Part shown: positions 34,511 to 58,190 of the stretch, piece after piece | Layout: every line of letters begins with the position of its first letter | Numbering within the stretch: position 1 is the first letter of the stretch | Assembly: GCA_951406725.2 (NCBI GenBank) | Contig: CATOCA020000008.1 | Span: 78,072 to 142,071 of the forward strand | Direction of reading: 5' to 3' | DNA: 64,000 nt | Source: Octopus vulgaris | Lineage: Eukaryota | Notes under the pieces: model-generated | The model's database searches: none | What the model saw: the letters and a program-made list of their open reading frames with translations, nothing else | What the model was told of the DNA's origin: nothing | Position numbers and translations under genes: made by a program

Positions 34511-34790
34511 AAACAATTGCTTCGTGGAAGGTGTTTATAAGCCATTTAAAACACACACAAAAAACCTTTAGATTCACTTCAACATTTAAGTTTAATTTGT
34601 CAAAGTATTTTCGTCACTTTGAGACCGCGACCTGTTCACTGACAGCATGGAATTTTGTCAGTGAACAGGTCGCGGTCTCAAAGCGACGAAAATATTTTGA
34701 CAAATTAAACTTAAATATTGAGGTGAAACTAACGGTTTTTGTGTGTTTTTGAATGGCTTATAAACACCTTCCACGCTGCAATTGCTTTTG
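34511..34790. repeat. ~280-bp foldback hairpin element
   Basis: ~134-bp inverted arms (CAATTGC..GACCTGTTCACTGACA / TGTCAGTGAACAGGTC..GCAATTG) with a ~11-nt loop. Confidence 0.9.
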
Positions 34791-34863: not shown

Positions 34864-35730
34864 ATACAGTTTGCGTAAGGTATTGGAGGATATACTATTT
34901 TTGGGTCATTGCTGCATTTTTTGCTAACTCTGTATAATCTTTGTTTCAGAAAATAATAATGGCAGACCCTCAGCTTACCCGAGAAATGAAGAGGCATGCT
35001 GTTATTGTGGTTATAAAGGCTGAACATGACGATTTAGAAATATCTTTATTTTTAAAAGTTGTCGGATCTTTTTAAAAGTTGTCTACAAAGTTTGTAAGGA
35101 ACTAGAGACTGAAGATGGAAGCATATCACCAATATCAAAGCGTTTTAAATGCTCTGAAATCATCAGAGCACCCGAATTTATCCAGCAAGTTCAACAGACC
35201 ATTTGTTACAATCCCAGAAAGTCCATGAGGTCAATTGCAAAAGATCTTCATGTGTCAGAAGGAACAGTTAGAAATGTTGTCCACGAAGACATCAGGAAAG
35301 ATCAATTTGTCAGAAAAAGCAAACGAAAATCACTCATCACATCTAAAAGGTTCTTAACAAATTGAAAAATCCAGCAGAAGATTTGATTTGGTTTTTCTCA
35401 AACGAGAAAAACTTCGACCTGATCAAAAAAGTTAACAAAAGAAATGACAGACTTTTATGTGCAGACCCTTCTGAAGTTCCATGTGTTATGCATACAAAAT
35501 TTCCTGCAACTGTCATGGTTTTAGGGGTTGTCAGTAATGAAGGACATATGATGCCTCCTTTCCACAAGGCCTTAAAGTTAACTTTGCCGACTACATTGAG
35601 GCCCTGGAAATAATTGTTAAGTTCTGGATAATATGCGATTTCGCGTTGCACTGGTTCTGCGAGTTGCACTGGATAGAAAGTGTATGCAATGGAAGGCCAT
35701 ATCTGTTTCAGTAAGACTCTGCACTATCAC
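34864..35730 (+). mobile_element. Decayed Tc1/mariner-superfamily (DD37D/maT-like) transposase remnant
   Basis: NPRKSMRSIAKDLHVSEGTV (HTH), WFFSNEKNF, TKFPATVMVLGVVSNEG, GRPYLFQ*DSA. Confidence 0.8.
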
Positions 35731-36208
35731 ACTCAAGCTAAAACTTGAGAACTACACAAGCTAAAACTTGAGAACTACACAACCAATTCCATTCAAATTT
35801 TACACATGCCTTACTTAGGGTCCATGTAGTTTCATGTTCAACTTCTTGCCTAGAGCGAGCTCATAGCAATATCATATCTTCTCCACTATTTCAGTATTAC
35901 GTGTTAAAAGTGAAACAAAAACGTTTCTCTATTTTATGTCAGATACTTTCACTTTAACAATAAAAAAATAATAACAATTGAATTATATGTAGTAAGTAAT
36001 AATTAAAATCAAACTAAAGTAGAATATAATCGTAACAACAAAAGTAAAAATAGCAATTGGTATAAAATTGCATCAATGACTTGAACTTGAATAAGTGGTT
36101 GTACATGAATGGGAATAAATTAAAAATATAATTAGCGTGCAGAAATGGAATAGTCCAGATGGATAATAAAAAATTAAATTAAAGAAAAGACTATTGTCTA
36201 TAAAGTAT

Positions 36209-37875
36209 ACAATGTAGAGAAAAAGAAGATTGAACGGCGGTGTTTTTTGCGCTCTGTAAAATTCGGTTGAAAAGGAAAAAAGAACAAAAAGTGAATTGTG
36301 GTTGTTGCGGAATTGGAACGTCGGTTGGTGCGGTTTCGCGTCGCACTGGTTCTGTGCGTCGCACGTTTTCTGTTCGGGAGGCCGTTTTTCGGTCTGAGGC
36401 GACTATGAGCCGCCTCTACCAAACGGATGAGATGGAAGGGAGAAATTTCTCTGAAAATTCGTCGACATCTGAGGAGGAAAGCACCTACGCAGGTATAACG
36501 AAGAAGTCAACAGAAAAAGAGATAGACCTGGCTAAGTTGACGGACTTCCAGGAGTTCATGAAGGAGGAGGAGAACGGAGAGGTTGAGCTGTTGCCTCTAG
36601 CAGGGCGCGGAGACTGGTTCCATCGTAGAACCATTAAATATAAAGTATTTATGAATGGAGGTAGAAAAATGGAAGTGATTAACATGGAAGCAATTGAAGA
36701 GGCTCTCAAACAGACAGGAGAAGAAATTGTGTACATGACAAAAGGATTACAATGTGGAACCATAACGGTACAATTTAAAAGTGAGAAAGCAGCCAGGAAT
36801 GTAGCAGCCAAGGTGGTGAGTACAGAAAAGATTTACTTGTTCCCCTCGTATTTGAATAGAAGGACCACCAGAATTAGGGTGGTGGGAATACCTCCACACC
36901 TAGAGGGCGAATTAATAACGGCTGCGGTTATCAAAGGAAATGAAGATAAAGTGGACATCCTCCACGCCATTATGAAATATGAGGGCTGGAGAGGCGTAAC
37001 AGTGGAGCTGAACGTACAGGCAGAGACCGAGGTACTGGTGGACCTGACGGAAAGCATCAGACTGGGAGAAGTGATCATGAGAGTGTGGGTGGAGGGCAGG
37101 GCTCCACGTTGTTACAAGTGTGGCCTGAGGGGTCACATAAGAGCCTTCTGCCCTCCCCCCAGGGAAAGAAACGGATTCCGAACCAGAGAGAGAGAAGCAG
37201 AAACCAGAAGAGAAGGAAACAGAGGAAGAGAATACACAGAAATGGAAGGGAGCTGGAAGTAAGAGGAAGAGAAGAATTCATGGAAAAGAAAATAATATGG
37301 AACTCCAATCTACCCCAAACCACCCACACCCTCTGAGTCCCACCCTATCCATGCAGACATTGAACCCACCCGCTCCCCCCAACAAGAAAACAAAAGAAAA
37401 AAAATTAACACATACACAAGAGATTGAAATCGAACCCAGGCCGTACATTTGTACTATGACTGAACAGAAAGAAGTTAAAAGTCTAATGGAAGAGTATAAA
37501 TGGTATGATGTTGGAGAGACTAGGTATGCTGTGATTGAAAAGAAGAACATAGGTGAGTTTATGGGGAGGTGTGAAAGGGAGAATTGGGAGGTGAAAGATA
37601 TAAGAATGAGCGATGAATTCGTGGAAGATATGGATGAGTATTTCGGAGTAAGAATGGATATGGAATTTATTCGTATTGACAAAGAACATTCAAGTGACTA
37701 TGAAAAACAAAGGACAGGTAAGTGATGCTGACGGACGGGGCCGTTGGTATCACTTTCATTTATCATTTTTCGTTTAACAATTCATGTTCATAAAGTTTAA
37801 TTATAATGTTCTATGTCCCCATGTTTTGTAATGTCCCCCTCTTCGTTGGCCCCTTGTGGGTAATAAAAAAAAAAA
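36209..37875 (+). mobile_element. Unit 1: chimera with B-type 5' half and A-type 3' half; frameshifted ORF1
   Basis: 5' matches unit 8 up to ~36980, then matches units 2-4; ORF fragments 36405-37262 and 37297-37725. Confidence 0.85.
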
Positions 37876-38060
37876 TTCGAACAAGTTTTTTCCGGTCGTT
37901 TTTTTTTCGGCTCCTGAAATTCGGCTGAAAAAAGAACAAAAAGCGTTGTTGTTGTTGTGGAAATTCTGAACGGCGTTGACGCGGTTTCGCGTTTCGCTCG
38001 TTCAGCGCGTTACACTTTTTCTGTTTTGGCGGCCGTTTTCGGTCTGTCAGACAGAAGGAA

Positions 38061-39479
38061 ATGGACTACGAGTCTCTAACAGACTTGTCCACGACGGATG
38101 AGGAACTGGAACAGGCAATTGCAGTGAAGCTGATGGAGGAAAAGGCTGGAGTTTTCGAGTCTTTATCAGACTTGTCTACATCTGAGGAGGAGCTAGAAAT
38201 AGCAGTGAGGAAAATGGATCAGAAGCTGGGTTATACCTATGCCGGTGTAACCAAGAAGGCGGAAGAGAAAGGGGTCGACATGGCCAAGTTGCCAAGTTAC
38301 CAGAAATACATGAAAAAGGAAAGCGGTGAGGTGGAACTATCACCGACACCCAGGAGAAAAGAATGGTATGATAAGAGGACCATTGTTTACAGGGTGTTCG
38401 CAAACGAAAGGAAGAGGGTAGAAGTTGTAACCATGGGATGGATAGAGGAAGCCCTGCGAAGAACTGAGGAGGAAATAAATTTTCTGACTCGAGGATCCAA
38501 GTACGGGACCGTAGTTGTGCACTTTAAAAGTGAATCTGTAGCGAGGAAGATGGCAGCGAAGGCGGTGAAGTCGGAAAAGGTAACACTGTTACCTACGTAT
38601 TTAAACAGGAGGATTACACGAATAAGGGTGGAGGGAGTGCCACCAAACGTGGAGGCAGAATGGATTGTGGCGGCTGTGATCAGCGGCCACGAGGACGAAG
38701 TGGATATTCTCCATGCCTCGGTTAAGTCCGAGGGCTGGAGAGGCGTAACAGTGGAGCTGAACGTACAGGCAGAGACCGAGGTACTGGTGGACCTGACGGA
38801 AAGCATCAGACTGGGAGAAGTGATCATGAGAGTGTGGGTGGAGGGCAGGGCTCCACGTTGTTACAAGTGTGGCCTGAGGGGTCACATAAGAGCCTTCTGC
38901 CCTCCCCCAGGGAAAGAAATGGATCCCGAACCAGAGAGAGAGAAGCAGAAACCAGAGGAGAAGGAAACAGAGGAAGAGAATACACAGAAATGGAAGGAAG
39001 CTGGAAGTAAGAGGAAGAGAAGAATATGTGGAAAAAAAGAAAATAATATGGAACTCCAATCTACCCCAAAACCTCCCACACCCTCTGAGTCCCACCCTAT
39101 CCATGCAGACATTGAACCCACCCGCTCCCCCCAACAAGAAAACAAAAGAAAAAAAAAGAATACACACACACAAGAGATTGAAATCGAACCCAGGCCGTAC
39201 ATTTGTACTATGACTGAACAGAGGGAAGTTAAAAGTCTAATGGAAGAGTATAAATGGTATGATGTTGGAGAGACTAGGTATGCTGTGATTGAAAAGAAGA
39301 ACATAGGTGAGTTTATGGGGAGGTGTGAAAGGGAGAATTGGGAGGTGAAAGATATAAGAATGAGCGATGAATTCGTGGAAAATATGAATGAGTATTTCGG
39401 AGTAAGAATGGATATGGAATTTATTCGTATTGGCAAAGAACATTCAAGTGACTATGAAAAACAAAGGACAGGTAAGTGA
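38061..39479 (+). CDS. Unit 2 intact ORF1-like protein (472 aa, A type)
   Basis: ATG to stop; TYAGVTKK, RRM-like GTVVVHF/TRIRVEGVP, CYKCGLRGHIRAFC; homologous to ORF1 of the LINE at 52380. Confidence 0.85.
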   Translation: MDYESLTDLSTTDEELEQAIAVKLMEEKAGVFESLSDLSTSEEELEIAVRKMDQKLGYTYAGVTKKAEEKGVDMAKLPSYQKYMKKESGEVELSPTPRRKEWYDKRTIVYRVFANERKRVEVVTMGWIEEALRRTEEEINFLTRGSKYGTVVVHFKSESVARKMAAKAVKSEKVTLLPTYLNRRITRIRVEGVPPNVEAEWIVAAVISGHEDEVDILHASVKSEGWRGVTVELNVQAETEVLVDLTESIRLGEVIMRVWVEGRAPRCYKCGLRGHIRAFCPPPGKEMDPEPEREKQKPEEKETEEENTQKWKEAGSKRKRRICGKKENNMELQSTPKPPTPSESHPIHADIEPTRSPQQENKRKKKNTHTQEIEIEPRPYICTMTEQREVKSLMEEYKWYDVGETRYAVIEKKNIGEFMGRCERENWEVKDIRMSDEFVENMNEYFGVRMDMEFIRIGKEHSSDYEKQRTGK

Positions 39480-39695
39480 TGCTGACGGACGGGGCCGTTG
39501 GTATCGCTTTCATTTTATCATTTTTTTCGTTTAACAATACATGTTCATAAAGTTTAATTATAATGTTCTATGTCCCCATGTCTTTTGTTGTCCCCCTCTG
39601 TGTCGCCCCTTAGTGGGTAATAAAAAATCAGCTCGTTCAGCGCGTTACACTTTTTCTGTTTTGGCGGCCGTTTTCGGTCTGTCAGACAGAAGGAA

Positions 39696-41056
39696 ATGGA
39701 CAACCCCTACCTGATGGGAGATACGGCTGCAGTTTTTGAGTCTTTAACAGACTTGTCTACGTCTGAGGAGGAGCTAGAAATAGCAGTGAGGAAAATGGAT
39801 CAGAAGCTGGGTTATACCTATGCCGGTGTAACCAAGAAGGCGGAAGAGAAAGGGGTCGACATGGCCAAGTTGCCAAGTTACCAGAAATACATGAAAAAGG
39901 AAAGCGGTGAGGTGGAACTATCACCGACACCCAGGAGAAAAGAATGGTATGATAAGAGGACCATTGTTTACAGGGTGTGCGCAAACGAAAGGAAGAGGGT
40001 AGAAGTTGTATCCATGGAATGGATAGAGGAAGCCCTGCGAAGAACTGAGGAGGAAATAAATTTTCTGACTCGAGGATCCAAGTACGGGACCGTAGTTGTG
40101 CACTTTAAAAGTGAATCTGCAGCGAGGAAGATGGCAGCGAAGGCGGTGAAGTCGGAAAAGGTAACACTGTTACCTACGTATTTAAACAGGAGGATTACAC
40201 GAATAAGGGTGGAGGGAGTGCCACCAAACGTGGAGGCAGAATGGATTGTGGCGGCTGTGATCAGCGGCCACGAGGACGAAGTGGATATTCTCCATGCCTC
40301 GGTTAAGTCCGAGGGCTGGAGAGGCGTAACAGTGGAGCTGAACGTACAGGCAGAGACCGAGGTACTGGTGGACCTGACGGAAAGCATCAGACTGGGAGAA
40401 GTGATCATGAGAGTGTGGGTGGAGGGCAGGGCTCCACGTTGTTACAAGTGTGGCCTGAGGGGTCACATAAGAGCCTTCTGCCCTCCCCCAGGGAAAGAAA
40501 TGGATACCGAACCAGAGAGAGAGAAGCAGAAACCAGAGGAGAAGGAAACAGAGGAAGAGAATACACAGAAATGGAAGGAAGCTGGAAGTAAGAGGAAGAG
40601 AAGAATACGTGGAAAAGAAAATAATATGGAACTCCAATCCACCCCAAAACCACCCACGCCCTCTGAGTCCCACCCTATCCATGCAGACATTGAACCCACC
40701 CGCTCCCCCCAACAAGAAAACAAAAGAAAAAAAAGAATACATACACACAAGAGATTGAAATCGAACCCAGGCCGTACATTTGTACTATGACTGAACAGAA
40801 AGAAGTTAAAAGTCTAATGGAAGAGTATAAATGGTATGATGTTGGAGAGACTAGGTATGCTGTGATTGAAAAGAAGAACATAGGTGAGTTTATGGGGAGG
40901 TGTGAAAGGGAGAATTGGGAGGTGAAAGATATAAGAATGAGCGATGAATTCGTGGAAAATATGGATGAGTATTTCGGAGTAAGAATGGATATGGAATTTA
41001 TTCGTATTGGCAAAGAACATTCAAGTGACTATGAAAAACAAAGGACAAGTAAGTGA
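39696..41056 (+). pseudogene. Unit 3 ORF1 (A type), frameshift in a poly-A run near 40730
   Basis: ORFs 39696-40790 and 40787-41056 together match unit 2. Confidence 0.85.
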
Positions 41057-41372
41057 TGCTGACGGACGGGGCCGTTGGTATCGCTTTCATTTTATCATTT
41101 TTTTCGTTTAACAATTCATGTTCATAAAGTTTAATTATAATGTTCTATGTCCCCATGTTTTGTTATGTCCGCCATTCTTCGTAGCCCCTTAGTGGGTAAT
41201 AAAGAAATACGCGGTTTTTTCGGCTCCTGAAAATTCGGTAAAAAAGAACAAAAAGCGTTGTTGTTGTTGTGGAAATTCTGAACGGCGTTGACGCGGTTTC
41301 GCGTTTCGCTCGTTCAGCGCGTTACACTTTTTCTGTTTTGGCGGCCGTTTTCGGTCTGTCAGACAGAAGGAG

Positions 41373-42788
41373 ATGGACTATGAGTCTCTAACAGACTTGT
41401 CCACGACAGATGAGGAACTGGAACAGGCAATTGCAGTGAAGCTGATGGAGGAAAAGGCTGGAGTTTTTGAGTCTTTATCAGACTTGCCTATGTCTGAGAA
41501 GGAGCTAGAAATGGCAGCAAGGAAATTGGAAGACAAGCTGAGTTATACCTATGCCGGTGTAACCAAGAAGGCGGAAGAGAAAGGGGTCGACATGGCCAAG
41601 TTGCCAAGTTACCAGAAATACATGAAAAAGGAAAGCGGTGAGGTGGAACTATCACCGACACCCAGGAGAAAAGAATGGTATGATAAGAGGACCATTGTTT
41701 ACAGGGTGTGCGCAAACGAAAGGAAGAGGGTAGAAGTTGTATCCATGGAATGGATAGAGGAAGCCCTGCGAAGAACTGAGGAGGAAATAAATTTTCTGAC
41801 TCGAGGATCCAAGTACGGGACCGTAGTTGTGCACTTTAAAAGTGAATCTGCAGCGAGGAAGATGGCAGCGAAGGCGGTGAAGTCGGAAAAGGTAACACTG
41901 TTACCTACGTATTTAAACAGGAGGATTACACGAATAAGGGTGGAGGGAGTGCCACCAAACGTGGAGGCAGAATGGATTGTGGCGGCTGTGATCAGCGGCC
42001 ACGAGGACGAAGTGGATATTCTCCATGCCTCGGTTAAGTCCGAGGGCTGGAGAGGCGTAACAGTGGAGCTGAACGTACAGGCAGAGACCGAGGTACTGGT
42101 GGACCTGACGGAAAGCATCAGACTGGGAGAAGTGATCATGAGAGTGTGGGTGGAGGGCAGGGCTCCACGTTGTTACAAGTGTGGCCTGAGGGGTCACATA
42201 AGAGCCTTCTGCCCTCCCCCAGGGAAAGAAACGGATTCCGAACCAGAGAGAGAGAAGCAGAAACCAGAGGAGAAGGAAACAGAGGAAGAGAATACACAGA
42301 AATGGAAGGAAGCTGGAAGTAAGAGGAAGAGAAGAATTCATGGAAAAGAAAATAATATGGAACTCCAATCTACCCCAAAACCACCCACACCCTCTGAGTC
42401 CCACCCTATCCATGCAGACATTGAACCCACCCGCTCCCCCCCAACAAGAAAACAAAAGAAAAAAAAGAATACACATACACAAGAGATTGAAATCGAACCC
42501 AGGCCGTACATTTGTACTATGACTGAACAGAAAGAAGTTAAAAGTCTAATGGAAGAGTATAAATGGTATGATGTTGGAGAGACTAGGTATGCTGTGATTG
42601 AAAAGAAGAACATAGGTGAGTTTATGGGGAGGTGTGAAAGGGAGAATTGGGAGGTGAAAGATATAAGAATGAGCGATGAATTCGTGGAAAATATGGATGA
42701 GTATTTCGGAGTAAGAATGGATATGGAATTTATTCGTATTGACAAAGAACATTCAAGTGACTATGAAAAACAAAGGACAGGTAAGTGA
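41373..42788 (+). CDS. Unit 4 intact ORF1-like protein (471 aa, A type)
   Basis: ATG to stop, near-identical to unit 2. Confidence 0.85.
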   Translation: MDYESLTDLSTTDEELEQAIAVKLMEEKAGVFESLSDLPMSEKELEMAARKLEDKLSYTYAGVTKKAEEKGVDMAKLPSYQKYMKKESGEVELSPTPRRKEWYDKRTIVYRVCANERKRVEVVSMEWIEEALRRTEEEINFLTRGSKYGTVVVHFKSESAARKMAAKAVKSEKVTLLPTYLNRRITRIRVEGVPPNVEAEWIVAAVISGHEDEVDILHASVKSEGWRGVTVELNVQAETEVLVDLTESIRLGEVIMRVWVEGRAPRCYKCGLRGHIRAFCPPPGKETDSEPEREKQKPEEKETEEENTQKWKEAGSKRKRRIHGKENNMELQSTPKPPTPSESHPIHADIEPTRSPPTRKQKKKKNTHTQEIEIEPRPYICTMTEQKEVKSLMEEYKWYDVGETRYAVIEKKNIGEFMGRCERENWEVKDIRMSDEFVENMDEYFGVRMDMEFIRIDKEHSSDYEKQRTGK

Positions 42789-43118
42789 TGCTGACGGACG
42801 GGGCCGTTGGTATCACTTTCATTTTATCATTTTTCGTTTAACAATTCATGTTCATAAAGTTTAATTATAATGTTCTATGTCCCCATGTTTTGTAATGTCC
42901 CCCTCTTCGTTGGCCCCTTGTGGGTAATAAAAAATCACGTGTTTTTTTCGGCTCTGTGTTTTTTGCTCTCTGTGAAATTCGGTAAAAAGAAAAAAGAACA
43001 AAAAGTGAATGGTTGTTGGTGTAAAATTTTGAACATAGTTGATGAGGTTTCGCGTCTCACTGGTTCTGCGCGTTACACTTTTTCGGTTCGGGAGGCCGTT
43101 TCTCGGCCGGAGGCGACT

Positions 43119-44446
43119 ATGAGCCGCCTCCATCAAGCGGAGGAGATGGAAGGGAGAATTTACTCTGAAATTTCGACGGAAGTATCGACATCTGAGGAGG
43201 AGTTGGCGGTGAAAAAGATGGAAGGCACCTACGCAGGTGTAACGAAGAAGTCAACGGAAAAGAGATAGACTTGGCTAAGTTGGCGGGCCTCCAGGAATTT
43301 GTGAAGGAGGACGAGAACGGTGAAGTTGAGCTGCTGCATCCAGTAGGGTGCGGAGACTGGTTCCATCGTAGAACCATTAAATATAAAGTATTTATGAATG
43401 GAGGTAGAAAGATGGAAGTAATTAACATGGAAGCAATTGAAGAGGCTCTTAAGCAGACGGGAGAGGAAATTGTGTACATGACGAAAGGATTACAATACGG
43501 AACCATAACGGTGCAATTTAAAAGTGAAAAAGCAGCCAGGAATGTAGCAGCCAAGGTGGTGAGTACAGAAAAGATTTACTTGTTACCCTCGTATCTGAAT
43601 AGGCGGACAACTAGAATTAGGTGGAGGGAATACCTCCACACCTAGAGGGCGAATTAATAACGGCTGCGGTTATAAAAGGAAATGAAGATAAAGTGGACAT
43701 CCTCCACGCCATTATGAAGTATGAAGGCGTGAGAGGTGCCACACTAGTTATGAACGTTCAAACGGAGGCGGATGTTATAGAGAAGATTACGGACAGCATA
43801 AAGACTGGAAATATTATTATGAGAGTGTGGGTGGAGGGTAGGGCGCCCAGGTGCTACAAGTGTGGCCAAAGGGGTCACATAAGAGCCTACTGCCCTCCCC
43901 CACCAAAGGAAAAAGAAAAGGAAAGCGTTGAGGAAGCCTCAGGAGAGGAAGAAAATAAACAGAAACAAACAGAGAAGAAAACGACAGAAGAAGAGGAGAT
44001 GCAACAAGAGTGGAAAGAAGCGGGAACAAAGAGAAAAAGAAGGAAAAAGAAAAAACTGTGCGAAGCCCCAACCCACCCCGACACCACCCATACCCTTGGA
44101 GTCCCATCCTTCCCCTGCAAACAGTAATTCCACCCACTCCCCGCCTACAAGAAGAATAAAAACAGACACACAGAGCAAAGAAAGTCCCAAGACCCATTTT
44201 TTATTTGTTATACATGGGAGAGACGTACAAAACGTTAAAAAACTGGTGTTAACCAAGTGGTACGAACACGAAGATTGGAGCTACACGGCTGTGGATGGTG
44301 ATGATACGGGTATATTGGCGACAAGGTTAGAGGAAGAGGGTGTGTGTTGGAAGTCAGTGGAAATGAAAGATGAATGGATAGAGAGGGCTAAAAGAAAAAC
44401 GAATGTTGTGATGGTTAAAACAGGAATACTAATTGAAAATGGGTGA
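43119..44446 (+). pseudogene. Unit 5 ORF1 (B type), several frameshifts
   Basis: Fragments at 43271, 43621 and 43928 are co-linear with unit 6. Confidence 0.85.
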
Positions 44447-44775
44447 AGAAGGACAGATAAGTGATGCTGGCGGATGGGGCCGTCGGTATCGCTCTCATAT
44501 ATCATTTTCATATTCCATTTTGCTCATATATATGTAATTGTGATGTTCCATGTCCCCATGTCTTGTAATGTCCCCCTCTTCGTTGGCCCCTTGTGGGTAA
44601 TAAAAAATCACGTGTTTTTTTGCTCTCTGTGAAATTCGGTAAAAAGAAAAAAGAACAAAAAGTGAATGGTTGTTGTTGTAAAATTTTGAACATAGTTGAT
44701 GCGGTTTCGCGTCTCACTGGTTCTGCGCGTTACACTTTTTCGGTTCGGGAGGCCGTTTCTCGGCCGGAGGCGACT

Positions 44776-46104
44776 ATGAGCCGCCTCCATCAAGCGGAGG
44801 AGATGGAAGGGAGAATTTACTCTGAAATTTCGACGGAAGTATCGACATCTGAGGAGGAGTTGGCGGTGAAAAAGATGGAAGGCACCTACGCAGGTGTAAC
44901 GAAGAAGTCAACGGAAAGAGAGATAGACTTGGCTAAGTTGGCGGGCCTCCAGGAGTTTGTGAAGGAGGACGAGAACGGTGAAGTCGAGCTGCTGCATCCA
45001 GTAGGGCGCGGAGACTGGTTCCATCGTAGAACCATTAAATATAAAGTATTTATGAATGGAGGTAGAAAGATGGAAGTAATCAACATGGAAGCAATTGAAG
45101 AGGCTCTCAAGCAGACAGGAGAGGAAATTGTGTACATGACAAAAGGATTACAATACGGAACGATAACGGTGCAATTTAAAAGCGAAAAAGCAGCCAGGAA
45201 TGTAGCAGCCAAGGTGGTGAGTACAGAAAAGATTTACTTGTTACCCTCGTATCTGAATAGGCGGACAACTAGAATTAGGGTGGAGGGAATACCTCCACAC
45301 CTAGAGGGCGAATTAATAACGGCTGCGGTTATAAAAGGAAATGAAGATAAAGTGGACATCCTCCACGCCATTATGAAGTATGAAGGCGTGAGAGGTGCCA
45401 CACTAGTTATGAACGTTCAAGCGGAGGCGGATGTTATAGAGAGGATTACGGACAGCATAAAAACTGGAAATATTATTATGAGAGTGTGGGTGGAGGGTAG
45501 GGCGCCCAGGTGCTACAAGTGTGGCCAAAGGGGTCACATAAGAGCCTACTGCCCTCCCCCACCAAAGGAAAAAGAAAAGGAAAGCGTTGAGGAAGCCTCG
45601 GGAGAGGAAGAAAATAAACAGAAACAAACAGAGAAGGAAACGACAGAAGAAGAGGAGATGCAACAAGAGTGGAAAGAAGCGGGAACAAAGAGAAAAAGAA
45701 GGAAAAAGAAAAACTGTGCGAAGCCCCAACCCACCCCGACACCACCCATACCCTTGGAGTCCCATCCTTCCCCTGCAAACAGTAATTCCACCCACTCCCC
45801 GCCTACAAGAAGAATAAAAACAGACACACAGAGCAAAGAAAGTCCCAAGACCCATTTTTTATTTGTTATACATAGGAAAGACATACAAAACGTTAAAAAA
45901 CTGGTGTTAACCAAGTGGTACGAACACGAAGATTGGAGCTACACGGTTGTGGACAGTGATGATACGGGTATATTGGCGACAAGGTTAGAGGAAGAGGGTG
46001 TGTGTTGGAAGTCAGTGAAAATGAAAGATGAATGGATAGAGAGGGCTAAAAGAAAAACGAATGTTGTGATAGGTGAAACAGGAATACAAATTGGAAATGG
46101 GTGA
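44776..46104 (+). CDS. Unit 6 intact ORF1-like protein (442 aa from MSRLHQ, B type)
   Basis: Open frame with TYAGVTKK, GTITVQF, CYKCGQRGHIRAYC; C-terminal domain differs from A type. Confidence 0.85.
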   Translation: MSRLHQAEEMEGRIYSEISTEVSTSEEELAVKKMEGTYAGVTKKSTEREIDLAKLAGLQEFVKEDENGEVELLHPVGRGDWFHRRTIKYKVFMNGGRKMEVINMEAIEEALKQTGEEIVYMTKGLQYGTITVQFKSEKAARNVAAKVVSTEKIYLLPSYLNRRTTRIRVEGIPPHLEGELITAAVIKGNEDKVDILHAIMKYEGVRGATLVMNVQAEADVIERITDSIKTGNIIMRVWVEGRAPRCYKCGQRGHIRAYCPPPPKEKEKESVEEASGEEENKQKQTEKETTEEEEMQQEWKEAGTKRKRRKKKNCAKPQPTPTPPIPLESHPSPANSNSTHSPPTRRIKTDTQSKESPKTHFLFVIHRKDIQNVKKLVLTKWYEHEDWSYTVVDSDDTGILATRLEEEGVCWKSVKMKDEWIERAKRKTNVVIGETGIQIGNG

Positions 46105-46266
46105 AGAAGGACAGACAAGTGATGCTGGCGGATGGGGCCGTCGGTATCACTCTCATATATCATTTTTCATATTCCATTTTGCTCATATATATGTAATTGT
46201 GATGTTCCATGTCCCCATGTCTTGTAATGTCCCCCTCTTCGTTGGCCCCTTGTGGGTAATAAAAAA

Positions 46267-47373
46267 TCACGTGTTTTTTTCGGCTCCTGAAATTCGGTAA
46301 AAAAGAACAAAAAGCGTTGTTGTTGTTGTGGAAATTCTGAACGGCGTTGACGCGGTTTCGCGTTTCGCTCGTTCAGCGCGTTACACTTTTTCTGTTTTGG
46401 CGGCCGTTCTCGGTCTGTCGGACGGAAGGAGGTGGACTATGAGTCTCTGACAGACTTGTCCACGACAGATGAGGAGCTGGAACGGGCAATTGCAGTGAGG
46501 CTGATGGAAGAAAGGGCTGGAATTTTCGAGTCTTTATCAGACCTGCCTGCGTCTGAGAAGGAGCTAGAAATGGCAGCAAGGAATTTGGAGGGCCGGGCTC
46601 CACGTTGTTACAAGTGTGGCCTGAGGGGTCACATAAGAGCCTTCTGCCCTCCCCCAGGGAAAGAAATGGATTCCGAACCAGAGAGAGAGAAGCAGAAACC
46701 AGAGGAGAAGGAAACAGAGGAAGAGAATACACAGAAATGGAAGGAAGCTGGAAGTAAGAGGAAGAGAAGAATGCGTGGAAAAGAAAATAATATGGAACAC
46801 CAATCTACCCCAAAACCACCCACACCCTCTGAGTCCCACCCTATCCATGCAGACATTGAACCCACCCGCTCCCCCCAACAAGAAAACAAAAGAAAAAAAA
46901 AGAATACACACACAGACAAGAGATTGAAGTCGATATCAGGCCGTACATTTGTACTATGACTGAACAGAAAGAAGTTAAATGTCTAATGGAAGAGTATAAA
47001 TGGTATGAAGTCGGTGAGACTAGGTATGCTGTGATTGAAAAGAAGAACATAGGTGAGTTTATGGTGAGGTGTGAAAGGGAGAATTGGGAGGTGAAAGATA
47101 TAAGAATGAGCGATGAATTCGTGGAAAATATGGATGAGTATTTCGGAGTAAGAATGGATATGGAATTTATTCGTATTGGCAAAGAACATTCAAGGGACGA
47201 TGAAAAACAAAGGACAGGTAAGTGATGCTGACGGATGGGGCCGTTGGTATCACTTTCATTTTCTCATTTTTTCGTTTAACAATTCATTTTCCATAAAGTT
47301 TAATTATAAATGTTTTATGTCCCCATGTCTTTTGGTGTCCACTTCTGTGTCGCCCCTAGTGGGTAATAAAGAA
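46267..47373 (+). mobile_element. Unit 7: A type, internal deletion of the RRM region, A-to-G changes including ATG to GTG
   Basis: Jumps from MAARNL to EGRAPRC near 46587; cluster of A-to-G versus unit 4 at 46420-46550. Confidence 0.85.
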
Positions 47374-49071
47374 ATACAATGTAGAGAAAAAGAAGATTGA
47401 ACGGCGGTGTTTTTTGCGCTCTGTAAAATTCGGTTGAAAAGGAAAAAAGAACAAAAAGTGAATTGTGGTTGTTGCGGAATTGGAACGTCGGTTGGTGCGG
47501 TTTCGCGTCGCACTGGTTCTGTGCGTCGCACGTTTTCTGTTCGGGAGGCCGTTTTTCGGTCTGAGGCGACTATGAGCCGCCTCTACCAAACGGATGAGAT
47601 GGAAGGAGAAATTTCTCTGAAAATTCGTCGACATCTGAGGAGGAGTTGGCGGTGAAAAAAATGGAAAGCACCTACGCAGGTATAACGAAGAAGTCAACAG
47701 AAAAAGAGATAGACCTGGCTAAGTTGACGGACTTCCAGGAGTTCATGAAGGAGGAGGAGAACGGAGAGGTTGAGCTGTTGCCTCTAGCAGGGCGCGGAGA
47801 CTGGTTCCATCGTAGAACCATTAAATATAAAGTATTTATGAATGGAGGTAGAAAAATGGAAGTGATTAACATGGAAGCAATTGAAGAGGCTCTCAAACAG
47901 ACAGGAGAAGAAATTGTGTACATGACAAAAGGATTACAATGTGGAACCATAACGGTACAATTTAAAAGTGAGAAAGCAGCCAGGAATGTAGCAGCCAAGG
48001 TGGTGAGTACAGAAAATATTTACTTGTTCCCCTCGTATTTGAATAGAAGGACCACCAGAATTAGGGTGGTGGGAATACCTCCACACCTAGAGGGCGAATT
48101 AATAACGGCTGCGGTTATCAAAGGAAATGAAGATAAAGTGGACATCCTCCACGCCATTATGAAATATGAAGGCGTGAGAGGTGCCACACTAGAAATGAAC
48201 ATACAGACGGAGACGGAAGTTATAGATAAGCTTACGGACAGTATACAAACTGGGAATATTATTATGAGAGTGTGGGTGGAGGGTAGGGCGCCCAGGTGCT
48301 ACAAGTGTGGCCAGAGGGGTCACATAAGAGCCTACTGCCCTCCCCCACCAAAGGAAAAGGAAATCGTTGCGGAAGCCCCAAAAGAGGACGCCCCAAAAGA
48401 GGAAGAAACTAAAGAGAAACAAACAGAAAAGGAAACGACAGAAGAAGAGGAGATGCAACAAGAGTGGGAAGAAGGCAGAAAAAAGAAAAAGAAAAACTGT
48501 GCGAAGCCCCAACCCACCCCAACACCACCCACACCCTCTGAATCCCACCCCTCCCCTGCAGACAGTGAACCCACCCGCTCCCCTCCAACAAGAAAACAAA
48601 AAAAAAAATAACACAGACAGACAAGAGACTGAAAGCGAACCCAGGCCGAACATTTGTATTATGACAGAACAGAAAGAGGTTAAAAGGGTAATGGAAGGGT
48701 ATACATGGTGCGATTCAGGTGTGACCAGGTGTGCAGTGATTGAAAAGGAGAGAATAGATGAGTTTATGAGAAGGTGCGAAAGGGAGAATTGGGAGGTGGA
48801 AGAGATGAGTCTGAGTGATGAATCCGTGAAAAATATGGAGAATCGTTTTGAAGTGAGAATGGAGAATATCGGTTTTATTATTGGAAATTGGAGTGACGGC
48901 GAAAACCAAAGGACAGGTAAGTGATGCTGGCGGAGGGGGCCGTTGGCATCGCTTTCATATTATCATTTTTTCATGTAACAATTCATCCTTCATAAATTTA
49001 ATTATAATGTTCTATGTCCCCATGTCTTGTAATGTCCCCCTCTTCGTTGGCCCCTTGTGGGTAATAAAGAA
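47374..49071 (+). mobile_element. Unit 8: B-type N-terminus with A-related C-terminal domain; frameshifted
   Basis: ORFs 47646-48611 and 48367-48924. Confidence 0.85.
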
Positions 49072-50497
49072 TCAAGATTCGAACAAGGTCGGTCGTTTTT
49101 TTGCGCTCTGTGGAATTCGGCTGAAAAGGGGAAGGGAACAGAGGGTGTTGTTGTTGTTGTGGAAATTTTGAGCGTCGTTGATGCGATTTCGCGTTGCACT
49201 GGTTCTGCGAGTTGCACTTTTTCTGTTCGGGCGGCCGTTTTCGGTCTGTCGGACGGAGGGAGGTGGACTTTGGTTCCCTGTCGGACTTGTCTGCGTCTGG
49301 GGAGGAGCTGGAACGGGCAGTGGGAGGGATGGATCGAGGGCTGGGTTGTACCTGTGCCGGTGTGACCAGGAGGGCGGAGGAGAGGGGGGTGGACTTGGCC
49401 GGGCTGCCGGGTTGCCAGAAGTGTGTGAGGGGGGATGGCGGTGGGGTCCGGGAGGGTGGCTCTTTTGCCTACATGTCTAGATGGAGGGATTGCACGAGTG
49501 GGGGTGGGGGGGGTGCCACCGAGCGTTGAGGCCGAGTGGATTGTGGCGGCTGTGATTGGCGGCCGCGAGGTGGAGGTGGATGTTCTCCATGCCTCGGTTG
49601 GGACCGAGGGCTGGAGAGGCGTAGCAGTGGAGCTGAGCGTGCAGGCGGGGAGCGAGGTGCTGGTGGACCTGGCGGAGGGCATCGGGTTGGGAGACGTGAT
49701 CATGAGAGTGTGGGTGGAGGGCAGAGCTCCACGTTGTTACAAGTGTGGCCTGAGGGGTCACATAAGAGCCTTCTGCCCTCCCCCAGTGAAAGAAATGGAT
49801 TCCGAACCGCAGAGAGGGAGGCCGGAGGAGAGGGAGACGGTGGAGGAGGAGAATTTACAGAAATGGAAAGAAGCTGGGAATAAGAGGAAGAGGAGAATAC
49901 GAGGAAAAGAAAATAACATAGAACACTAATCCACCCCAACACCACCCACACCCTCTGAGACCCACCCTATCCCTGCAGACAGTGAACCCACCCGCTCCCC
50001 TCCAACAAGAAAACAAAAGAAAAAAATAATACAGACAGACAAGAGTTTGAAATCGAACCCAGGCCGAACATTTATATTATGACTGAACAGAAAGAAGTGA
50101 AAAGGGTAATGGAAGAGTATAAATGGTATGAAATAGGTGAGACCAGATATACAGTGCTGGAAAAGAAGAATATAGATGAGTTTGTGTTGAGGTGTGAAAG
50201 GGAGAATTGGGAGGTGAAAGATACAAGAAAGAGCGATGAATTCGTGGAAAATATGGAGGAGTATTTCGGAGTAAGAATGGATATGGATGGTCTTCGTATT
50301 GGGAATGAACATTCAGGTGACAGTGAAAACAAAAGGACAGGTAAGTGATGCTGGCGGATGGGGCCGTTAGCATCGCTTTCATATTATCATTTTTCATTTT
50401 AATATTCATTTGCTCATAAATTTAATCATATTGTTCTATGTCCCCCATGTTTTGTTATGTAAGCCAATCTTCGTAGCCCCTGGTGGGTAATAAAGAA
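49072..50497 (+). mobile_element. Unit 9: A-related (C subtype), A-to-G hypermutated 5' half, internal deletion
   Basis: G-rich rewrite of the unit 2/3/10 sequence over ~49130-49690; 3' half near-identical to unit 10. Confidence 0.88.
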
Positions 50498-52151
50498 AGA
50501 AAGGTCGGTCGTGTTTTTTTGCGCTCTGTAAAATTCGGTTAAGGGGGAAAAAGGAACAAAAAGTGTTGTTGTTGTGGAAATTTTGAACGTCGTTGATGCG
50601 GTTTCGCGTTGCACGGGTTCTGCGAGTTACACTTTTTCTGTTCGGGCGGCCGTTTTCGGTCTGTCAGACAGAAGGAGATTGACTGTAATTCCTTATCAGA
50701 CTTGTCTGCGTCTGAGGAGAAGCTGGAGCGGGCAGTGGGAATGATGGATCGAAGGCTGGGTTGTTCCTGTGCCGGTGTAAGCAGGAGGGCGGAGGAGAGG
50801 CGGGTGGACTTGGCCGGGCTGCCGAGTTGCCGGAAATATATGAAGGGGGATGGCGGTGAGGTCGAACTGGCGCCGACACCTAAGAGAGGGGAATGGTGTG
50901 ATAGAAGGACCATTGTGTGCAGGGTGGTCGCAAACGAAAGGAAGAAGATAGAAGTTGTAAACATGGAGTGGATAGAGGAGGCGCTGAGAAGAACGGAGGA
51001 GGAAGTGAATTTTCTGACTCGAGGATAAAAGTATGGTACTGTAGTGGTACAGTTTAAAAGTGAGAATGCAGCAAGGAAGATAGCGGCGAAGGCGGTGAAA
51101 TCCGAAAAGGTAACACTTTTGCCTACGTATTTAAACAGAAAAATTACACGAGTAAGGGTCGAGGGAGTGCCACCAAACGTTGAGGCCGAGTGGATTGTGG
51201 CGGCTGTGATCAGCGGCCACGAGGAGGAAGTGGATATTCTCCATGCCTCGGTTAAGACCGAGGGCTGGAGAGGCGTAACAGTGGAACTGAACGTGCGGGC
51301 AGAGAACGAAGTACTGGTGGACCTGGCGGAAAGCATCAGATTGGGAGACGTGATCATGAGAGTGTGGGTGGAGGGCAGAGCTCCACGTTGTTACAAGTGT
51401 GGCCTGAGGGGTCACATAAGAGCCTTCTGCCCTCCCCCAGTGAAAGAAATGGATTCCGAACCGCAGAGAGGGAGGCGGAGGCCGGAGGAGAGGGAGACGG
51501 TGGAGGAGGAGAATTCACAGAAATGGAAAGAAGCTGGGAATAAGAGGAAGAGGAGAATACGAGGAAAAGAAAATAACATAGAACACCAATCCACCCCAAC
51601 ACCACCCACACCCTCTGAGACCCACCCTATCCCAGCAGACAGTGAGCCCACCCGCTCCCCTCCAACAAGAAAACAAAAGAAAAAAAATAATACAGACAGA
51701 CAAGAGTTTGAAATCGAACCCAGGCCGAGCATTTATATTATGACTGAACAGAAAGAAGTGAAAAGGGTAATGGAAGAGTATAAATGGTATGAAATAGGTG
51801 AGACCAGATATACAGTGCTGGAAAAGAAGAATATAGATGAGTTTGTGTTGAGGTGTGAAAGGGAGAATTGGGAGGTGAAAGATACAAGAATGAGCGATGA
51901 ATTCGTGGAAAATATGGAGGAGTATTTCGGAGTAAGAATGGATATGGATGGTCTTCGTATTGGGAATGAACATTCAGGTGACAGTGAAAACAAAAGGACA
52001 GGTAAGTGGTGCTAGCGGATGGGGCCGTTGGCACCGCTTTCATATATCATTTTAATAATTCATTTTTACTCATATCTATGTAATTGTGATGTTCTATGTC
52101 CCCAATGTTTGTAACGTCCCCTCTATGTAGCCCCTAGTGGGTAATAAAGAA
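50498..52151 (+). mobile_element. Unit 10: C subtype, partially A-to-G mutated, premature stop at ~51026
   Basis: ORFs 50609-51028 and 51044-52015. Confidence 0.85.
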
Positions 52152-52379
52152 TTAACTTGGAGGAAAGCTATTTGCGTTTATTGTAAGTTGATATATTTTT
52201 GCTGTCGTATTATTATCTCTGTTATTCTCTACTGTTTGTCCACCTGTTTTTGTCTTTTGCTGTCTAACTGTCGAAGTCAGCCTTCGCGCGAGGACTTCGC
52301 GTTGGTGTTCCCCCCTCCGTGGGGGAAAAATAACATTTATCTTGAAGATACCAAGGGCTTGTGAAGCCAACTGTTCGGG

Positions 52380-53740
52380 ATGGAGTCCCCCATCTCTTCT
52401 TCGCCCGTGACGAGTGAAGAGGAGTTTCCGGCGATGTCGCCAAGGAAAAAAGAGGCGGTGTCGCCAAAGAAAAAAGAGGCAATGTCGCCAAAGAAAAAGG
52501 AAAACCAAGCACCAGCACCAGCTCCAGCGAAAAAATTCTCTGAAGTGGCCGGTAAAAGGATCAAGAAAATAAACGTGGAGGATTTGGAAAAATATGCAGA
52601 CTGTGTAAAAAAAGAGGGCACGGAAGTGACAGTGGTCACAAACGTCCAAAAATACGATGAAATAGAAAAAAAAAGGATAATATATAAGACATATAACACA
52701 ACGACAAAAATGATTAAAAAAATTGAAGAAAAAAAATAGAGAACTGTCTAAAACCTTTAATGGATAAAATAACGTACATTAACAGAGGAAAGAGATACGG
52801 CACAGTGGAGGTGCGTTTTACTACTGAGGAGACTGCAAAAAAACTATCTATGGAGCCGATTAAAGCGGAGAACATTGTTCTCCTCCCCTTATATAGAGGG
52901 AAAAGAACGTTGAAAATTTCGATGAACAACATACCACCAGAGGCAGATGCCGAATGTCTGGTGGCAGCAGTGATGGTAGGCCTGGAGGAAAAAATAAACA
53001 TCCTCCAGGCCACAGTGGAGAAAGAGGAATTTTGGAAAGGGCAGAAAATAGTAATAGCCATTCAGGCGGAAGTGCAAACACTGGAGGAAATACCAGAAAC
53101 ATTAAAAATTAGTGAAGACGAGAGAATAACAGTTTTCGTGGAGGGCAGAAAGCCGAGGTGTTTCGGCTGCGGCAAGAAGGGTCATGTAAGGGCGGAATGC
53201 CAACCCCAACCCAAACCGCAGGAAGTACCTCAGCCAGGTGAAAAAGAAGATAAAGTGTCACCAGAAGCAGCGCCGGGCGGCCCAGAAGGGACGACTGAAG
53301 GTGTGGAGGTGACAAAGGCAGCAGAACCAGTGGCGGAGGAAAATAAGAGCGAGGAAAAGATAAATGAGGAGGGGTGGGCAAAAATCACCAAAAAAAAAAA
53401 AAGAAAAACGGAAACCACCCCTCCCAGAGTGAACTTAAAAAAGAAAAGGGAGTCAATGAAGTCGTATATGGCCGTTAAGGCATCAAATAACAGACTCGGA
53501 AACGTGTTGGTAGCTATGGCCAAAGTGGAGAAAATAGAGAAAAAAAACGACTTTGTAGTTTACAGAATAGGCCGGAAGGATTACGGGCGGATAAAGTCCG
53601 AATTCTTCCATGACGTAGGCCCACTTAGAATGGATGTGACATCCCCACATATATTCGAGGGCCTACGTCAGACTCCCCCACGAGGCCCTGAAAAAGAATT
53701 AAACAAAGAAGAAAAGGAGAAAACCGAACCACTGATATAA
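52380..53740 (+). pseudogene. LINE ORF1 (CCHC knuckle), frameshift in poly-A near 52735
   Basis: GKRYGTVEVRF, VFVEGRKPRCFGCGKKGHVRAEC. Confidence 0.85.
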
Positions 53741-53749
53741 AGGTAAGTA

Positions 53750-55570
53750 ATGGATTGCATTTATGTTGGTTGTTTGAATGTGCGCGGCCTGGGAGCAGGC
53801 TGGAAGCAAGGTCGCTTCCTGCATGATATCAGGTCGCGTAATTTAGATGTTATTGTTGCTACAGAAACCCGGTTAGAGGGGCCAAGAGGTCTACTCCCGC
53901 TGGCAAGGGTGGGGCACTGGTCCATTTAGACCAATCTAAAGCATTTGATAGTGTCGACCATCGTTACCTGGTATCTGCCCTGGCACAGTTCGGGCTGAGC
54001 CTTGGCTTCCTCAGGTGGATTATCCAAATTTATGATAACATCGACTCGGTAGTTCGGGTGAACGGCTTCTTGTCGAAGCCGTTCAAAATCAAGCGCTCGG
54101 TTCGTCAAGGGTGTCCGCTCTCCCCGCTTTTGTACGTGATGGCTCTTGAGCCATTACTGCGAAAACTGAGCGGCATCCCGAGACAGCCAGGTAGTGGAAA
54201 ATCAGTGTCAGCGTACGCGGATGACATCACCATCATCGTGACCGAAATGGACCACCTATGTAAAGTAGGCAAGGCCATAGAGGTTTACGAGACGGTGACA
54301 GGAGCAAAAGTTAATCGCGAAAAGTCAGTCGGCTTGCAACTCGGCACCTGGAGAGGCAAGTCGATGCCTCCTAACAGCGTCGTGAGACGTTGGACGGAGG
54401 GTCCGATTAAATTGCTAGGGGTCTGGTTCGGTCCAGACCTCCAAATAGAGAAGAATTGGGGCGAGGTAACGAGCAGGGTGGCTGCAGTAACCAAGACCTG
54501 GTCTTGGCGGTGGCTATGCCTGAAAGGGAGGGCGGAGGTGGCCAATGTGTTTATCGCATCGGTTATCACCTTCCGCCTTTCCGTCGTTCCTTGCCCTGAT
54601 TCGTGGTTGATCAAGTTGGAAAGACAGCTCTTCTACTTCTTGTGGAAGGGCGGGAAACCACTTGTGAAACGCTCTACTTGCTGTCAACAACCGTTAAAGG
54701 GTGGGCTAGGGATGCCTTGGCTGATGATGTGCAGACATGCGCTGAGGTTAAGACATCTGTGGCTCTACCTGGATGGTGAACGGGTGTGGTCTCCGCTAGC
54801 AAAACTGATGTTTCCCAAGTTCACTAGTTTCGGTGGATGGGAAACCTGGCTGAATCGTAGATCGAAACTTGGTACTTGGTACACGGAGTGTCGCAAGGCT
54901 CTCCTGCTATTTCGTCGCTCGGGCAACGCCTGCGGTGGGGGTTCCACCACATTCTTCTATAGAGGGTTGGTAGAGGCGGAATGTGAAGATACCTTGGGGA
55001 AACCCTAGGTCTCGACGATAATCAGCTGGCCAGTCTGTTCCGACGTACGTTCAAGCCGAGGACACTGGACAACTTCCAGAAGTCTCTGGCATGGCAATGC
55101 TACAGAGGAGCTCTACCTGTTCGGGATAAACTCGCAAGGCACGGTGGCCAAGACAGTCCGATATGTCCAAGATGCGGGCGGGATAGGGAAACCGTCCCGC
55201 ACGCTATTGTTCATTGTCCGGACGTGTCTGAGGTGTGGGTTTATGCCGAACAGCTGTTGTCAAGTACACGAAGAGTACAGCTGTCGACTGAGTCGATTAC
55301 AAAAATTGACCCACCGGATTTCCTCGCGAATGAAGGTAAGTTTCGTTTTCTCATTGTAGTAGCAATTGCGAAAGAGGTGATATGGAAGACGAGAATGAAA
55401 GGTCTACAGTCAGGCAAGTTCATCTCCGGCCCTGGTTTGATGAATTATTTCATCTTTCACCTGAAAAGGAAGATAGGGCTGGAGAGAATATGCCTGAGTG
55501 TATGAAGAACGATGGAAAGATGTAGCACGAAAGTTGCGAGTGAATGATACAACATAAATGTAAAACCAAA
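53750..55570 (+). pseudogene. LINE ORF2 remnant (APE start + RT C-half + terminal Cys/His motif)
   Basis: Same motifs as unit 11; out-of-frame deletion junction near 53900; stop at 55008. Confidence 0.85.
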
Positions 55571-56273
55571 CGTAACCAAAAGTATCAGTGGGTAGGCGGG
55601 GCTCGTGGAGTCCGAGCTAAACCCGCACCCACTCCACCCGTAATGTCTTCCGGTCTGTTCCATCATTCGATTTCTGTCTAATTTTTGTAATTTCATGTAA
55701 ATTTTTAAATTCGTTTTATTGTAAAAACCCATTCGTGTGTCTGACCCCATCATCAGATTGTATTGTCCCATCTATGTTCGCCCCTTGTGGGTAATAATAA
55801 AACAACATGGAGGAAAGCACCTTCGAAAAGTGTCTTGATGCGACTATGAAAGGTATCTAATCAGAGGCGGTAAATTCGCCACAATAGAAGCAAGGTTCGA
55901 GTCAACGGAGCGTGCAAGTACTCGACTCGAACTTGCAAAGTGGAAATATTTTATTATTACCTTTATATCTGGGGCGTAGGACGTCCCGGAAAAAAATTTT
56001 AAATGCCCCCCCCCAAAAAAAAAAGTAGAGGTAGGCTGGATTGTAGCCACACTTCTATACAAGATACACTTGATCGAAATTACAAGAGACGGGCTAACAA
56101 TTCCAGTCTGTTATATATTTTCAGTATTGTTATCACTAGCGATATCAAGATATAACTTTGTATTTTGTATTTTATGTGTAGATGTATATATATAGATGTA
56201 CATGTAATATGTACACATATATATACACATGCACTAGCACTTTGAGCCGGCAACGACGGGTCTTTAATGCTAG

Positions 56274-57729: not shown

Positions 57730-58190
<461 letters not shown>

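Follow-up and report, generated by a model that had tools for sequence, protein, structure and literature searches.

How does a tandem array of retroelements gain its members, and what marks the place where a new one comes in? The question is raised by a 64,000-nucleotide (nt) stretch of Octopus vulgaris DNA (assembly GCA_951406725.2, contig CATOCA020000008.1, positions 78,072–142,071; hereafter the window), in which ten head-to-tail units of 1.1–1.76 kb, all on the + strand, occupy positions 36208–52148. Each unit carries only the first open reading frame (ORF1) of a long interspersed nuclear element (LINE), and a LINE follows the last of them. A preliminary description of the window had noted a 20-mer at two unit junctions, had read it as a mark resembling a target-site duplication (TSD) left by two units that entered between two others, and had proposed that the family's own tail is the target, which would make the array self-extending. 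From the evidence given below we think it probable that ORF1-only elements, mobilised in trans, inserted by target-primed reverse transcription (TPRT) just upstream of the heads of resident copies, as monomers and probably also as read-through multimers, with recombination following later.

The + strand is common to all ten units, the LINE and the host ORF1 in which they lie, and beyond the array the window holds 36 kb of other sequence on one side and 8 kb on the other. The tail motif GGGTAATAAA is exact at the end of every unit (10/10), and a copy with one mismatch ends the LINE, at 55789. The head is kept in 9/10 units and ORF2 in none of the ten, relatives of ORF2 matching only 53872–55520 within the whole window. 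The unit protein of ~440–470 amino acids has a weak zinc knuckle (zf-CCHC) below the Pfam cut-off, its closest proteins are O. vulgaris predictions, and the 3′ untranslated region (UTR) is ~160 nt long. Three subfamilies are interleaved in the array: A (units 2, 3, 4 and 7; 97% alike among units 2–4), B (units 5 and 6; 98.1% alike mutually and only ~65% identical to A) and A′ (units 9 and 10), with units 1 and 8 as chimeras. Neighbouring units are often each other's closest relatives.

The two flanks of the array are consecutive pieces of a single decayed ORF1 from an older relative, on the same strand. Both were matched by 23 of 144 ORF1 relatives, the matched pieces lying 0–4 residues apart in 22 of the 23 and out of register in one. 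The LINE nested in this ORF1 has an A-rich 3′ end, AATAATAAAA, and a 15-nt TSD with one mismatch; by these features and by its ORF2, 52169–55803 belongs to the L1/Tx1 group, and we leave Tx1 versus L1 at group level. Its ORF1 and that of the units are 31% identical, and over the final ~45 nt its tail has ~84% similarity to theirs. Its ORF2 consists of the first ~50 endonuclease codons (12/39 residues identical to the protein P0007, E 1e-4) followed by the middle of the reverse transcriptase (RT) (RVT_1, E 2.2e-21). Intact relatives of the LINE carry endonuclease, RT and zf-RVT domains (PF03372, PF00078 and PF13966), and the best match of P0007 among solved structures is human L1 ORF2p (E 2.7e-70). 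ZCCHC3 is linked to Tx1-type ORF1, and ZCCHC3-like matches (P0108; rank 10 in another search, with a score of 0.90) are leads only for a Tx1 placement.

Two joins between the array and its host site bear directly on the choice of target. The ~27 nt that end the left flank (36208–36234) are duplicated after tail 7, where unit 8 follows, and tail 10 joins the host about 5 nt before the left TSD copy of the LINE; tails 7 and 10 are both followed by host-ORF1 sequence that lies immediately in front of a resident head. Behind the LINE tail, in turn, no unit has been added at this locus. Because non-tail sequence was joined before a head in two places and the LINE tail received nothing, we prefer a site upstream of a head to the earlier proposal of the tail as target. 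The idea of a self-extending array stands in part: nesting and same-strand stacking support growth directed at the family's own copies, but a site just upstream of a head fits better than one in the tail. An RNA gene (tRNA or snRNA) as target was dropped, an Rfam search of 35500–56500 at E ≤ 1 having given eight matches, all far below the gathering score.

The 20-mer itself is present as described, after the tail of unit 4 and again after the tail of unit 6, where it runs on into the head of unit 7, and a shorter match follows the tail of unit 5. This match is the 13-mer TCACGTGTTTTTT, found in exactly three copies in the window (42935, 44608 and 46267); shuffled sequence gave a mean of 0.21 with one mismatch allowed, a random-sequence null being unsuitable as the family head recurs. 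By exact extension anchored on GGGTAATAA, junctions 4 and 6 have 24 nt in common downstream, with 18 nt of agreement at junction 5 and 7 nt at junction 2, and 32 nt in common upstream, the latter also at tails 1, 5 and 8. In A units 2, 4 and 7 the head consists of the T-run plus CGGCTC, so that any such tail-to-head join gives most of the 20-mer. The A-type head in fact makes up its last 16–17 nt, leaving only ~3–4 nt (TCA or TCAC) and the A-run as specific to the junction, and at junctions 4 and 6 the repeated sequence is in the main not outside the element ends, as that of a TSD would be. Together with the B head, junction 4 forms a period-17 repeat (42939–42974). Poly(A) cleavage inside the next head was rejected as the source of the 20-mer, there being no A tract after either copy.

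Copies outside the window point the same way. Contigs of four public runs (X1, X2 and X12, which are DNA runs, and X5, which is not on record as RNA but may be) were compared with window positions 41150–44640, and what is reported from them concerns the best-supported rows, namely the best 24 of 673 loose ends, 15 of 31 joints and 40 of 478 variant sites. Contig depth is not copy number; as a scale, the depths of two low-depth joints shared by all three DNA runs are 50–62 in X1, 10–12 in X2 and 51–53 in X12. The doubled head from 42941 was found joined to a different tail spacer at a depth of 656 in X12 (at least 24 letters on each side) and of 73 in X1 (side 21), and an X5 contig matches 42943–43422 with 0 substitutions; the doubled head of unit 5 looks heritable. 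Since doubled heads stand after other spacers and the 20-mer is composed mostly of head, it is not diagnostic of a TSD, and none is needed to explain it: it consists of the tail end and the family head, and a TSD may form part of it, whether that arose here or at a donor locus. The other origin that the preliminary description had considered, the normal 5′ end of solo B-type copies, comes close to what the run contigs contain and speaks against a TSD, but their doubled-head copies follow a tail and are not solo.

If the GGGTAATAAA tail were strictly the recognised target, the 20-mer would be a TSD made at the array locus as units 5–6 entered between units 4 and 7. A two-step insertion, in which unit 5 enters at the tail 4/head 7 junction and unit 6 then enters at the right copy, does reproduce junctions 4–6 exactly, including the 24-nt and 18-nt matches. 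Units 5 and 6 also resemble different source lineages: they differ at 32 sites, and 11 of these match variants among the best 40 of 478 rows from other runs, a pattern that different source copies explain better than a recent local duplication would. A joint from 42934 to 43673 (tail end to the middle of the B ORF1; depths 62, 9.8 and 53; side 21), which like that from 42337 to 44023 has low depth and occurs in all three DNA runs, is either a 5′-truncated copy behind a tail, in which case it would favour tail targeting, or an insertion into a B unit. Such targeting is nevertheless unlikely in our view, given the 16–17 of 20 nt that are family head, the doubled head after another spacer in X12 and X1, the making of junctions 7 and 10 in host ORF1, the LINE tail that got nothing, and one X5 contig in which tail, A-run and TCA stand before unrelated sequence, where the TCA may belong to the 3′ end of the element. 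The entry of the B units between units 4 and 7 is reproduced by stepwise insertion, but its place is less certain. The junction-2 form, which is that of unit 3 (depth 1065), and the unit 3 deletion (depth 1202) are clearly multicopy in X2, and with junction forms in many copies the event behind junctions 4–6 may have occurred at a donor locus. The joint of the unit 7 deletion was likewise found in X1, at a depth of 148.5. An assembly artefact was rejected for junction 2, the unit 3 and unit 7 deletions and the doubled head, all of which are in other runs, a rejection that does not extend to the array as a whole.

Table 1. Features of the array, its junctions, the adjoining LINE and the host site, in window coordinates.
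Feature	Position	Strand	Description
Left flank	36178..36234	+	Decayed ORF1 piece of an older relative, 5′ half of host site (tblastn: window ORF1s; 144 relatives)
Unit 1	36208..37867	+	Chimera: 36206-36982 copies spacer and 5′ part of unit 8; 3′ part unit-4-like
Unit 2	37868..39624	+	A type; ORF1 open, 472 amino acids from 38061
Unit 3	39625..41203	+	A type; 5′-truncated, internal deletion
Unit 4	41204..42931	+	A type; ORF1 41373-42788, 471 amino acids, weak zf-CCHC; tail motif at 42922
Junction 4	42932..42954	+	A-run, TCAC and 16-nt A-type head before B head; first 20-mer at 42935-42954
Unit 5	42932..44604	+	B type, 98.1% identical to unit 6; ORF1 frameshifted
Unit 6	44605..46263	+	B type, with the 13-mer at 44608 and an open ORF1 (44776-46104; zf-CCHC, E 0.0012)
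Junction 6	46264..46286	+	Second 20-mer at 46267-46286, continuing as unit 7 head
Unit 7	46264..47370	+	A type without equivalent of unit-4 bases 41527-42150
Unit 8	47371..49068	+	5′ part B-like, 3′ part A-like; preceded by 27-nt left-flank copy (from about 47375)
Unit 9	49069..50494	+	A′ type; A>G hyperedited 49112-49686; internally deleted
Unit 10	50495..52148	+	A′ type; A>G excess in 5′ part
Left TSD copy of LINE	52154..52168	+	14/15 identical to 55804-55818
L1/Tx1-like LINE	52169..55803	+	Frameshifted ORF1 with zf-CCHC; ORF2 internally deleted
Right flank	55804..56060	+	Right TSD copy, then same decayed relative ORF1, 3′ half of host site

For one unit at least, a passage through RNA can be read from its substitutions. 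Unit 9 has 73 private changes relative to units 4 and 10, and 59 of them are sense-strand A>G, affecting 59/181 A sites as compared with 3/143 T sites for T>C (p 6e-14). The changed As avoid a 5′ G (18/98 vs 66/123; p 8e-8), which is the signature of ADAR. Strand-specific A>G change with 5′-G depletion indicates that unit 9 passed through RNA, and APOBEC or GC-biased change was ruled out by polarity and strand. The A>G signal of unit 10, at 50518–50850, is weaker (p 0.011); of the 26 A>G changes in its 5′ part, 24 recur in unit 9 (24 shared A>G vs 2 G>A). Unit 9 lies directly upstream of unit 10, and the 3′ bodies of the two are identical at 643/650 positions. In the loose ends at 41429 from X1 and X2 the subfamily of unit 10 appears, by eye, with A in place of the G of unit 10. 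Unit 9 is from these data a retrocopy from an already edited, unit-10-like lineage, with possibly two rounds of editing in units 9 and 10, and the overlap between them could also be raised by ADAR site preference or by an edited dimer RNA. For the other eight units we infer movement through RNA. A more specific form of the same idea is that ORF1-only elements re-insert in cis, each directly before the head of the very copy that made the RNA, so that arrays extend themselves, needing neither a chromosome end nor a host target gene, and the ADAR edits of each round, fixed in the germline, record the order of insertion. Unit 9 would then be the daughter of unit 10, sharing the 24 changes and adding 59. 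We treat this cis reading as tentative and somewhat doubtful.

Exchange at the DNA level has also left traces in the array. The 3′ UTR modules (the last ~160 nt) are decoupled from the bodies: that of unit 10 is B-like, tail 3 is similar to tail 9 and tail 2 to tail 7. Segments 36206–36982 and 47373–48170 form a 777-nt duplication with 3 differences (1 substitution, a 1-nt indel and a 21-nt indel), which comprises the flank spacer and the start of unit 8 and passes into an A body near 36980, where the two have a short tract in common; its presence in unit 1 fits a homology-resolved 5′ junction or a crossover. One could accordingly suppose a single founding double insertion, after which gene conversion and unequal crossover between arrays built and mixed the units. 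The R1 array of Drosophila is a parallel, its dimers having arisen by insertion at one site and then been expanded by unequal exchange (bioRxiv 10.1101/158386). The chimeric units 1 and 8, the decoupled tails, the close relationship of neighbours, the constant junction-2 form at high depth and the identical neighbours among gene models would all be expected from such a history, but it leaves unaccounted for the strand-specific A>G editing of a unit, the join of a tail to the flank with a 27-nt duplication, and the spacers, ~4 to ~33 nt long, which are of at least five types among ten junctions. The R1 units are separated by identical 33-nt rDNA duplications, whereas the octopus array mixes subfamilies and spacer types. 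We give expansion from one founding event little credence.

A third candidate, which would place the specificity in the enzyme, is a sequence-specific Tx1-type endonuclease whose target is a conserved ORF1 segment of relatives and whose TSD is regenerated at each insertion, as in the tandems of SINEU-3 in Mariner-N4. Tx1 elements often have fixed targets (PMC4494074), and the same ORF1 segment is found behind a tail not only in the window but in two runs, X2 having a 28-nt spacer between tail and A head (depth 251; 23/28 to the left flank with one 5-nt gap, by eye) and X5 a loose end behind a tail with 23/30 to the right flank (by eye). The joints nevertheless fall at different points across ~45 nt of the segment, none of the ten units is interrupted at its own homologous segment, and junctions 2–6 are without a clear ORF1-derived spacer, except for an 8-nt match of junction 3 to junction 7; a fixed ORF1 target is very improbable on these grounds. 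In the SINEU-3 case, and that of Tx1L in Tx1D, Tx1-associated non-autonomous elements have been inserted serially within another transposon, with a TSD between them (PMC4494074). There the TSD is largely constant and the target a DNA transposon; the octopus array has spacers of varied length and a relative's ORF1 as host.

Under the account that we favour, the units would be non-autonomous ORF1-only derivatives of an L1/Tx1-like LINE that have retained its 3′ tail motif, copied in trans by an intact ORF2 elsewhere as the putative partner, and the array would have grown leftwards by TPRT. The LINE entered the ORF1 of the older relative on the same strand, as its 15-nt TSD attests, and this would have been the first step. 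New units would then have landed in front of a resident member, at a distance of between a few and ~35 nt from its 5′ end, presumably tethered to its head. L1-type endonucleases prefer A-rich T|AAA(A/G)-like sites, and the nick may for this reason be placed at the nearest such site: in host ORF1 for heads with no unit in front of them (junctions 7 and 10), and in the A-run of the previous tail, which probably supplies the nick, for heads with one (junctions 4–6). Homology to the resident copy may have aided the 5′ joint, to judge from the head copy of 777 nt in unit 1 and from the GTG/T-run microhomology of junction 5. Some of the units probably arrived as read-through multimers that brought their junctions with them, and unequal exchange or conversion would later have shuffled bodies and tails.

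The gene models of O. vulgaris bear on how widely this applies. Among 19 protein clusters matching the C-terminal piece of the unit, 10 (with 46 member sequences) hold 2–3 copies on the same strand; these multi-copy clusters lie on 9 distinct contigs of 78–226 Mb, and the order in one of them (P0126) is A-B-A. Several observations weigh against insertion upstream of heads or narrow its scope. The gene models show same-strand neighbours and not abutment, and some neighbours are identical or share private variants (P0001 and P0130), which DNA-level duplication explains equally well. The right-flank-like loose-end consensus in X5 is made up of 2 contigs with an agreement of 0.65. In 36 X1 contigs, non-tail sequence ending in GTCG stands directly before the T-run of the A head, and is possibly the true 5′ end. 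In X5 some tails run into unrelated sequence (loose ends at 42937 and 44607), so that array ends or untargeted copies exist. Finally, the sharing of spacers is non-nested (junctions 2/4/5/6, 3/7, 1/8 and 8/9), so that one-by-one insertion at the array locus cannot be the whole history.

Set beside known systems, the octopus array appears to work like the nesting of Zepp and like double-insertion tandems such as those of R1 and SINEU-3, and to be built like HAL1 and like HeT-A, a member of the Jockey clade, and yet to lack defining features of both Zepp and HeT-A. Zepp and ZeppL, L1-clade elements of green algae, insert in nested fashion into existing copies and form same-direction arrays (PMC8226300). 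The likeness lies in insertion beside existing family copies in one orientation, which for the octopus is seen at the array locus. Zepp clusters, one centromeric cluster per chromosome, consist mostly of the 3′ ends of 5′-truncated autonomous copies, whereas the octopus units are in an animal, end-to-end, mostly near full length and without ORF2, nine of ten having a head. HAL1 (half-L1) of mammals is a non-autonomous L1 derivative that encodes only ORF1p (PMC5753468). The octopus units resemble it in carrying ORF1 only, in the derivation of that ORF1 and of the 3′ end from an L1-type LINE (at the identities given above) and in movement through RNA, as indicated for unit 9; no descent from mammalian L1 is claimed. 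The octopus ORF1 is of the zinc-knuckle type, and for HAL1 neither arrays nor self-targeting are mentioned in the accessible part of PMC5753468. In Drosophila HeT-A and TART, an RT-less element beside an RT-encoding partner, head-to-tail arrays of one direction extend from the head side (PMC5537684). The additions of HeT-A are made at chromosome ends and its 3′ UTRs are long, whereas the octopus array is interstitial, with one interrupted ORF1 on both sides and a short 3′ UTR.

If targeting upstream of heads holds genome-wide, ORF1-only passengers would here sustain an animal equivalent of Zepp nesting and of HeT-A arrays, at an interstitial site. A strategy of this kind would offer a safe haven that depends on no host target gene, and would lead directly from retroelement to satellite. 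From hyperedited genomic copies the order of insertions could be read, and such copies would be evidence of ADAR activity in the germline that has been written back into DNA; the lineage is known to edit its RNA extensively (PMC9115989). In O. vulgaris, 80 L1-Tx1 families have been reported, 13 of them recently active (PMC13282606); the terms 'nested' and 'non-autonomous' are absent from the accessible text and supplement of that paper, whose repeat library may hold the octopus unit family. No description of cephalopod arrays of ORF1-only units or of ADAR-edited genomic LINE copies was found in the open literature, a search that mostly left aside subscription papers and Repbase and is weak evidence of novelty. 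The leader pattern gave 0 matches in metagenome contigs. Among 80 RT-aligned metagenome loci of 27–44% identity, many of them short and saying little on other animals, none had a DNA match to the array and none had two separated + strand CCHC knuckle motifs. A bacterial promoter scan, of a type not relevant here, found nothing.

The units also seed spurious or chimeric O. vulgaris gene models. In P0003, P0134 and P0138 the C-terminal ~88 codons of the unit are spliced into host-like gene models, for example TP53RK, and these are probably annotation artefacts or exonisation. A ~39-nt piece at 35630–35668 matches the leader of unit 9 (about 49180–49217) and lies inside decayed transposase-like sequence, which we take to be Tc1/mariner-like; it is flanked by 7-nt direct repeats (CTGGATA) and has the appearance of an insertion templated by the array, 13.5 kb away. 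Elsewhere in the window, an inverted repeat of ~25 bp with a short loop (34628–34680, by eye) is possibly a small foldback element, and at 57730–57900 there is a sequence like a short interspersed nuclear element (SINE), presumably related in appearance to octopus SINEs, with a TA microsatellite at its end.

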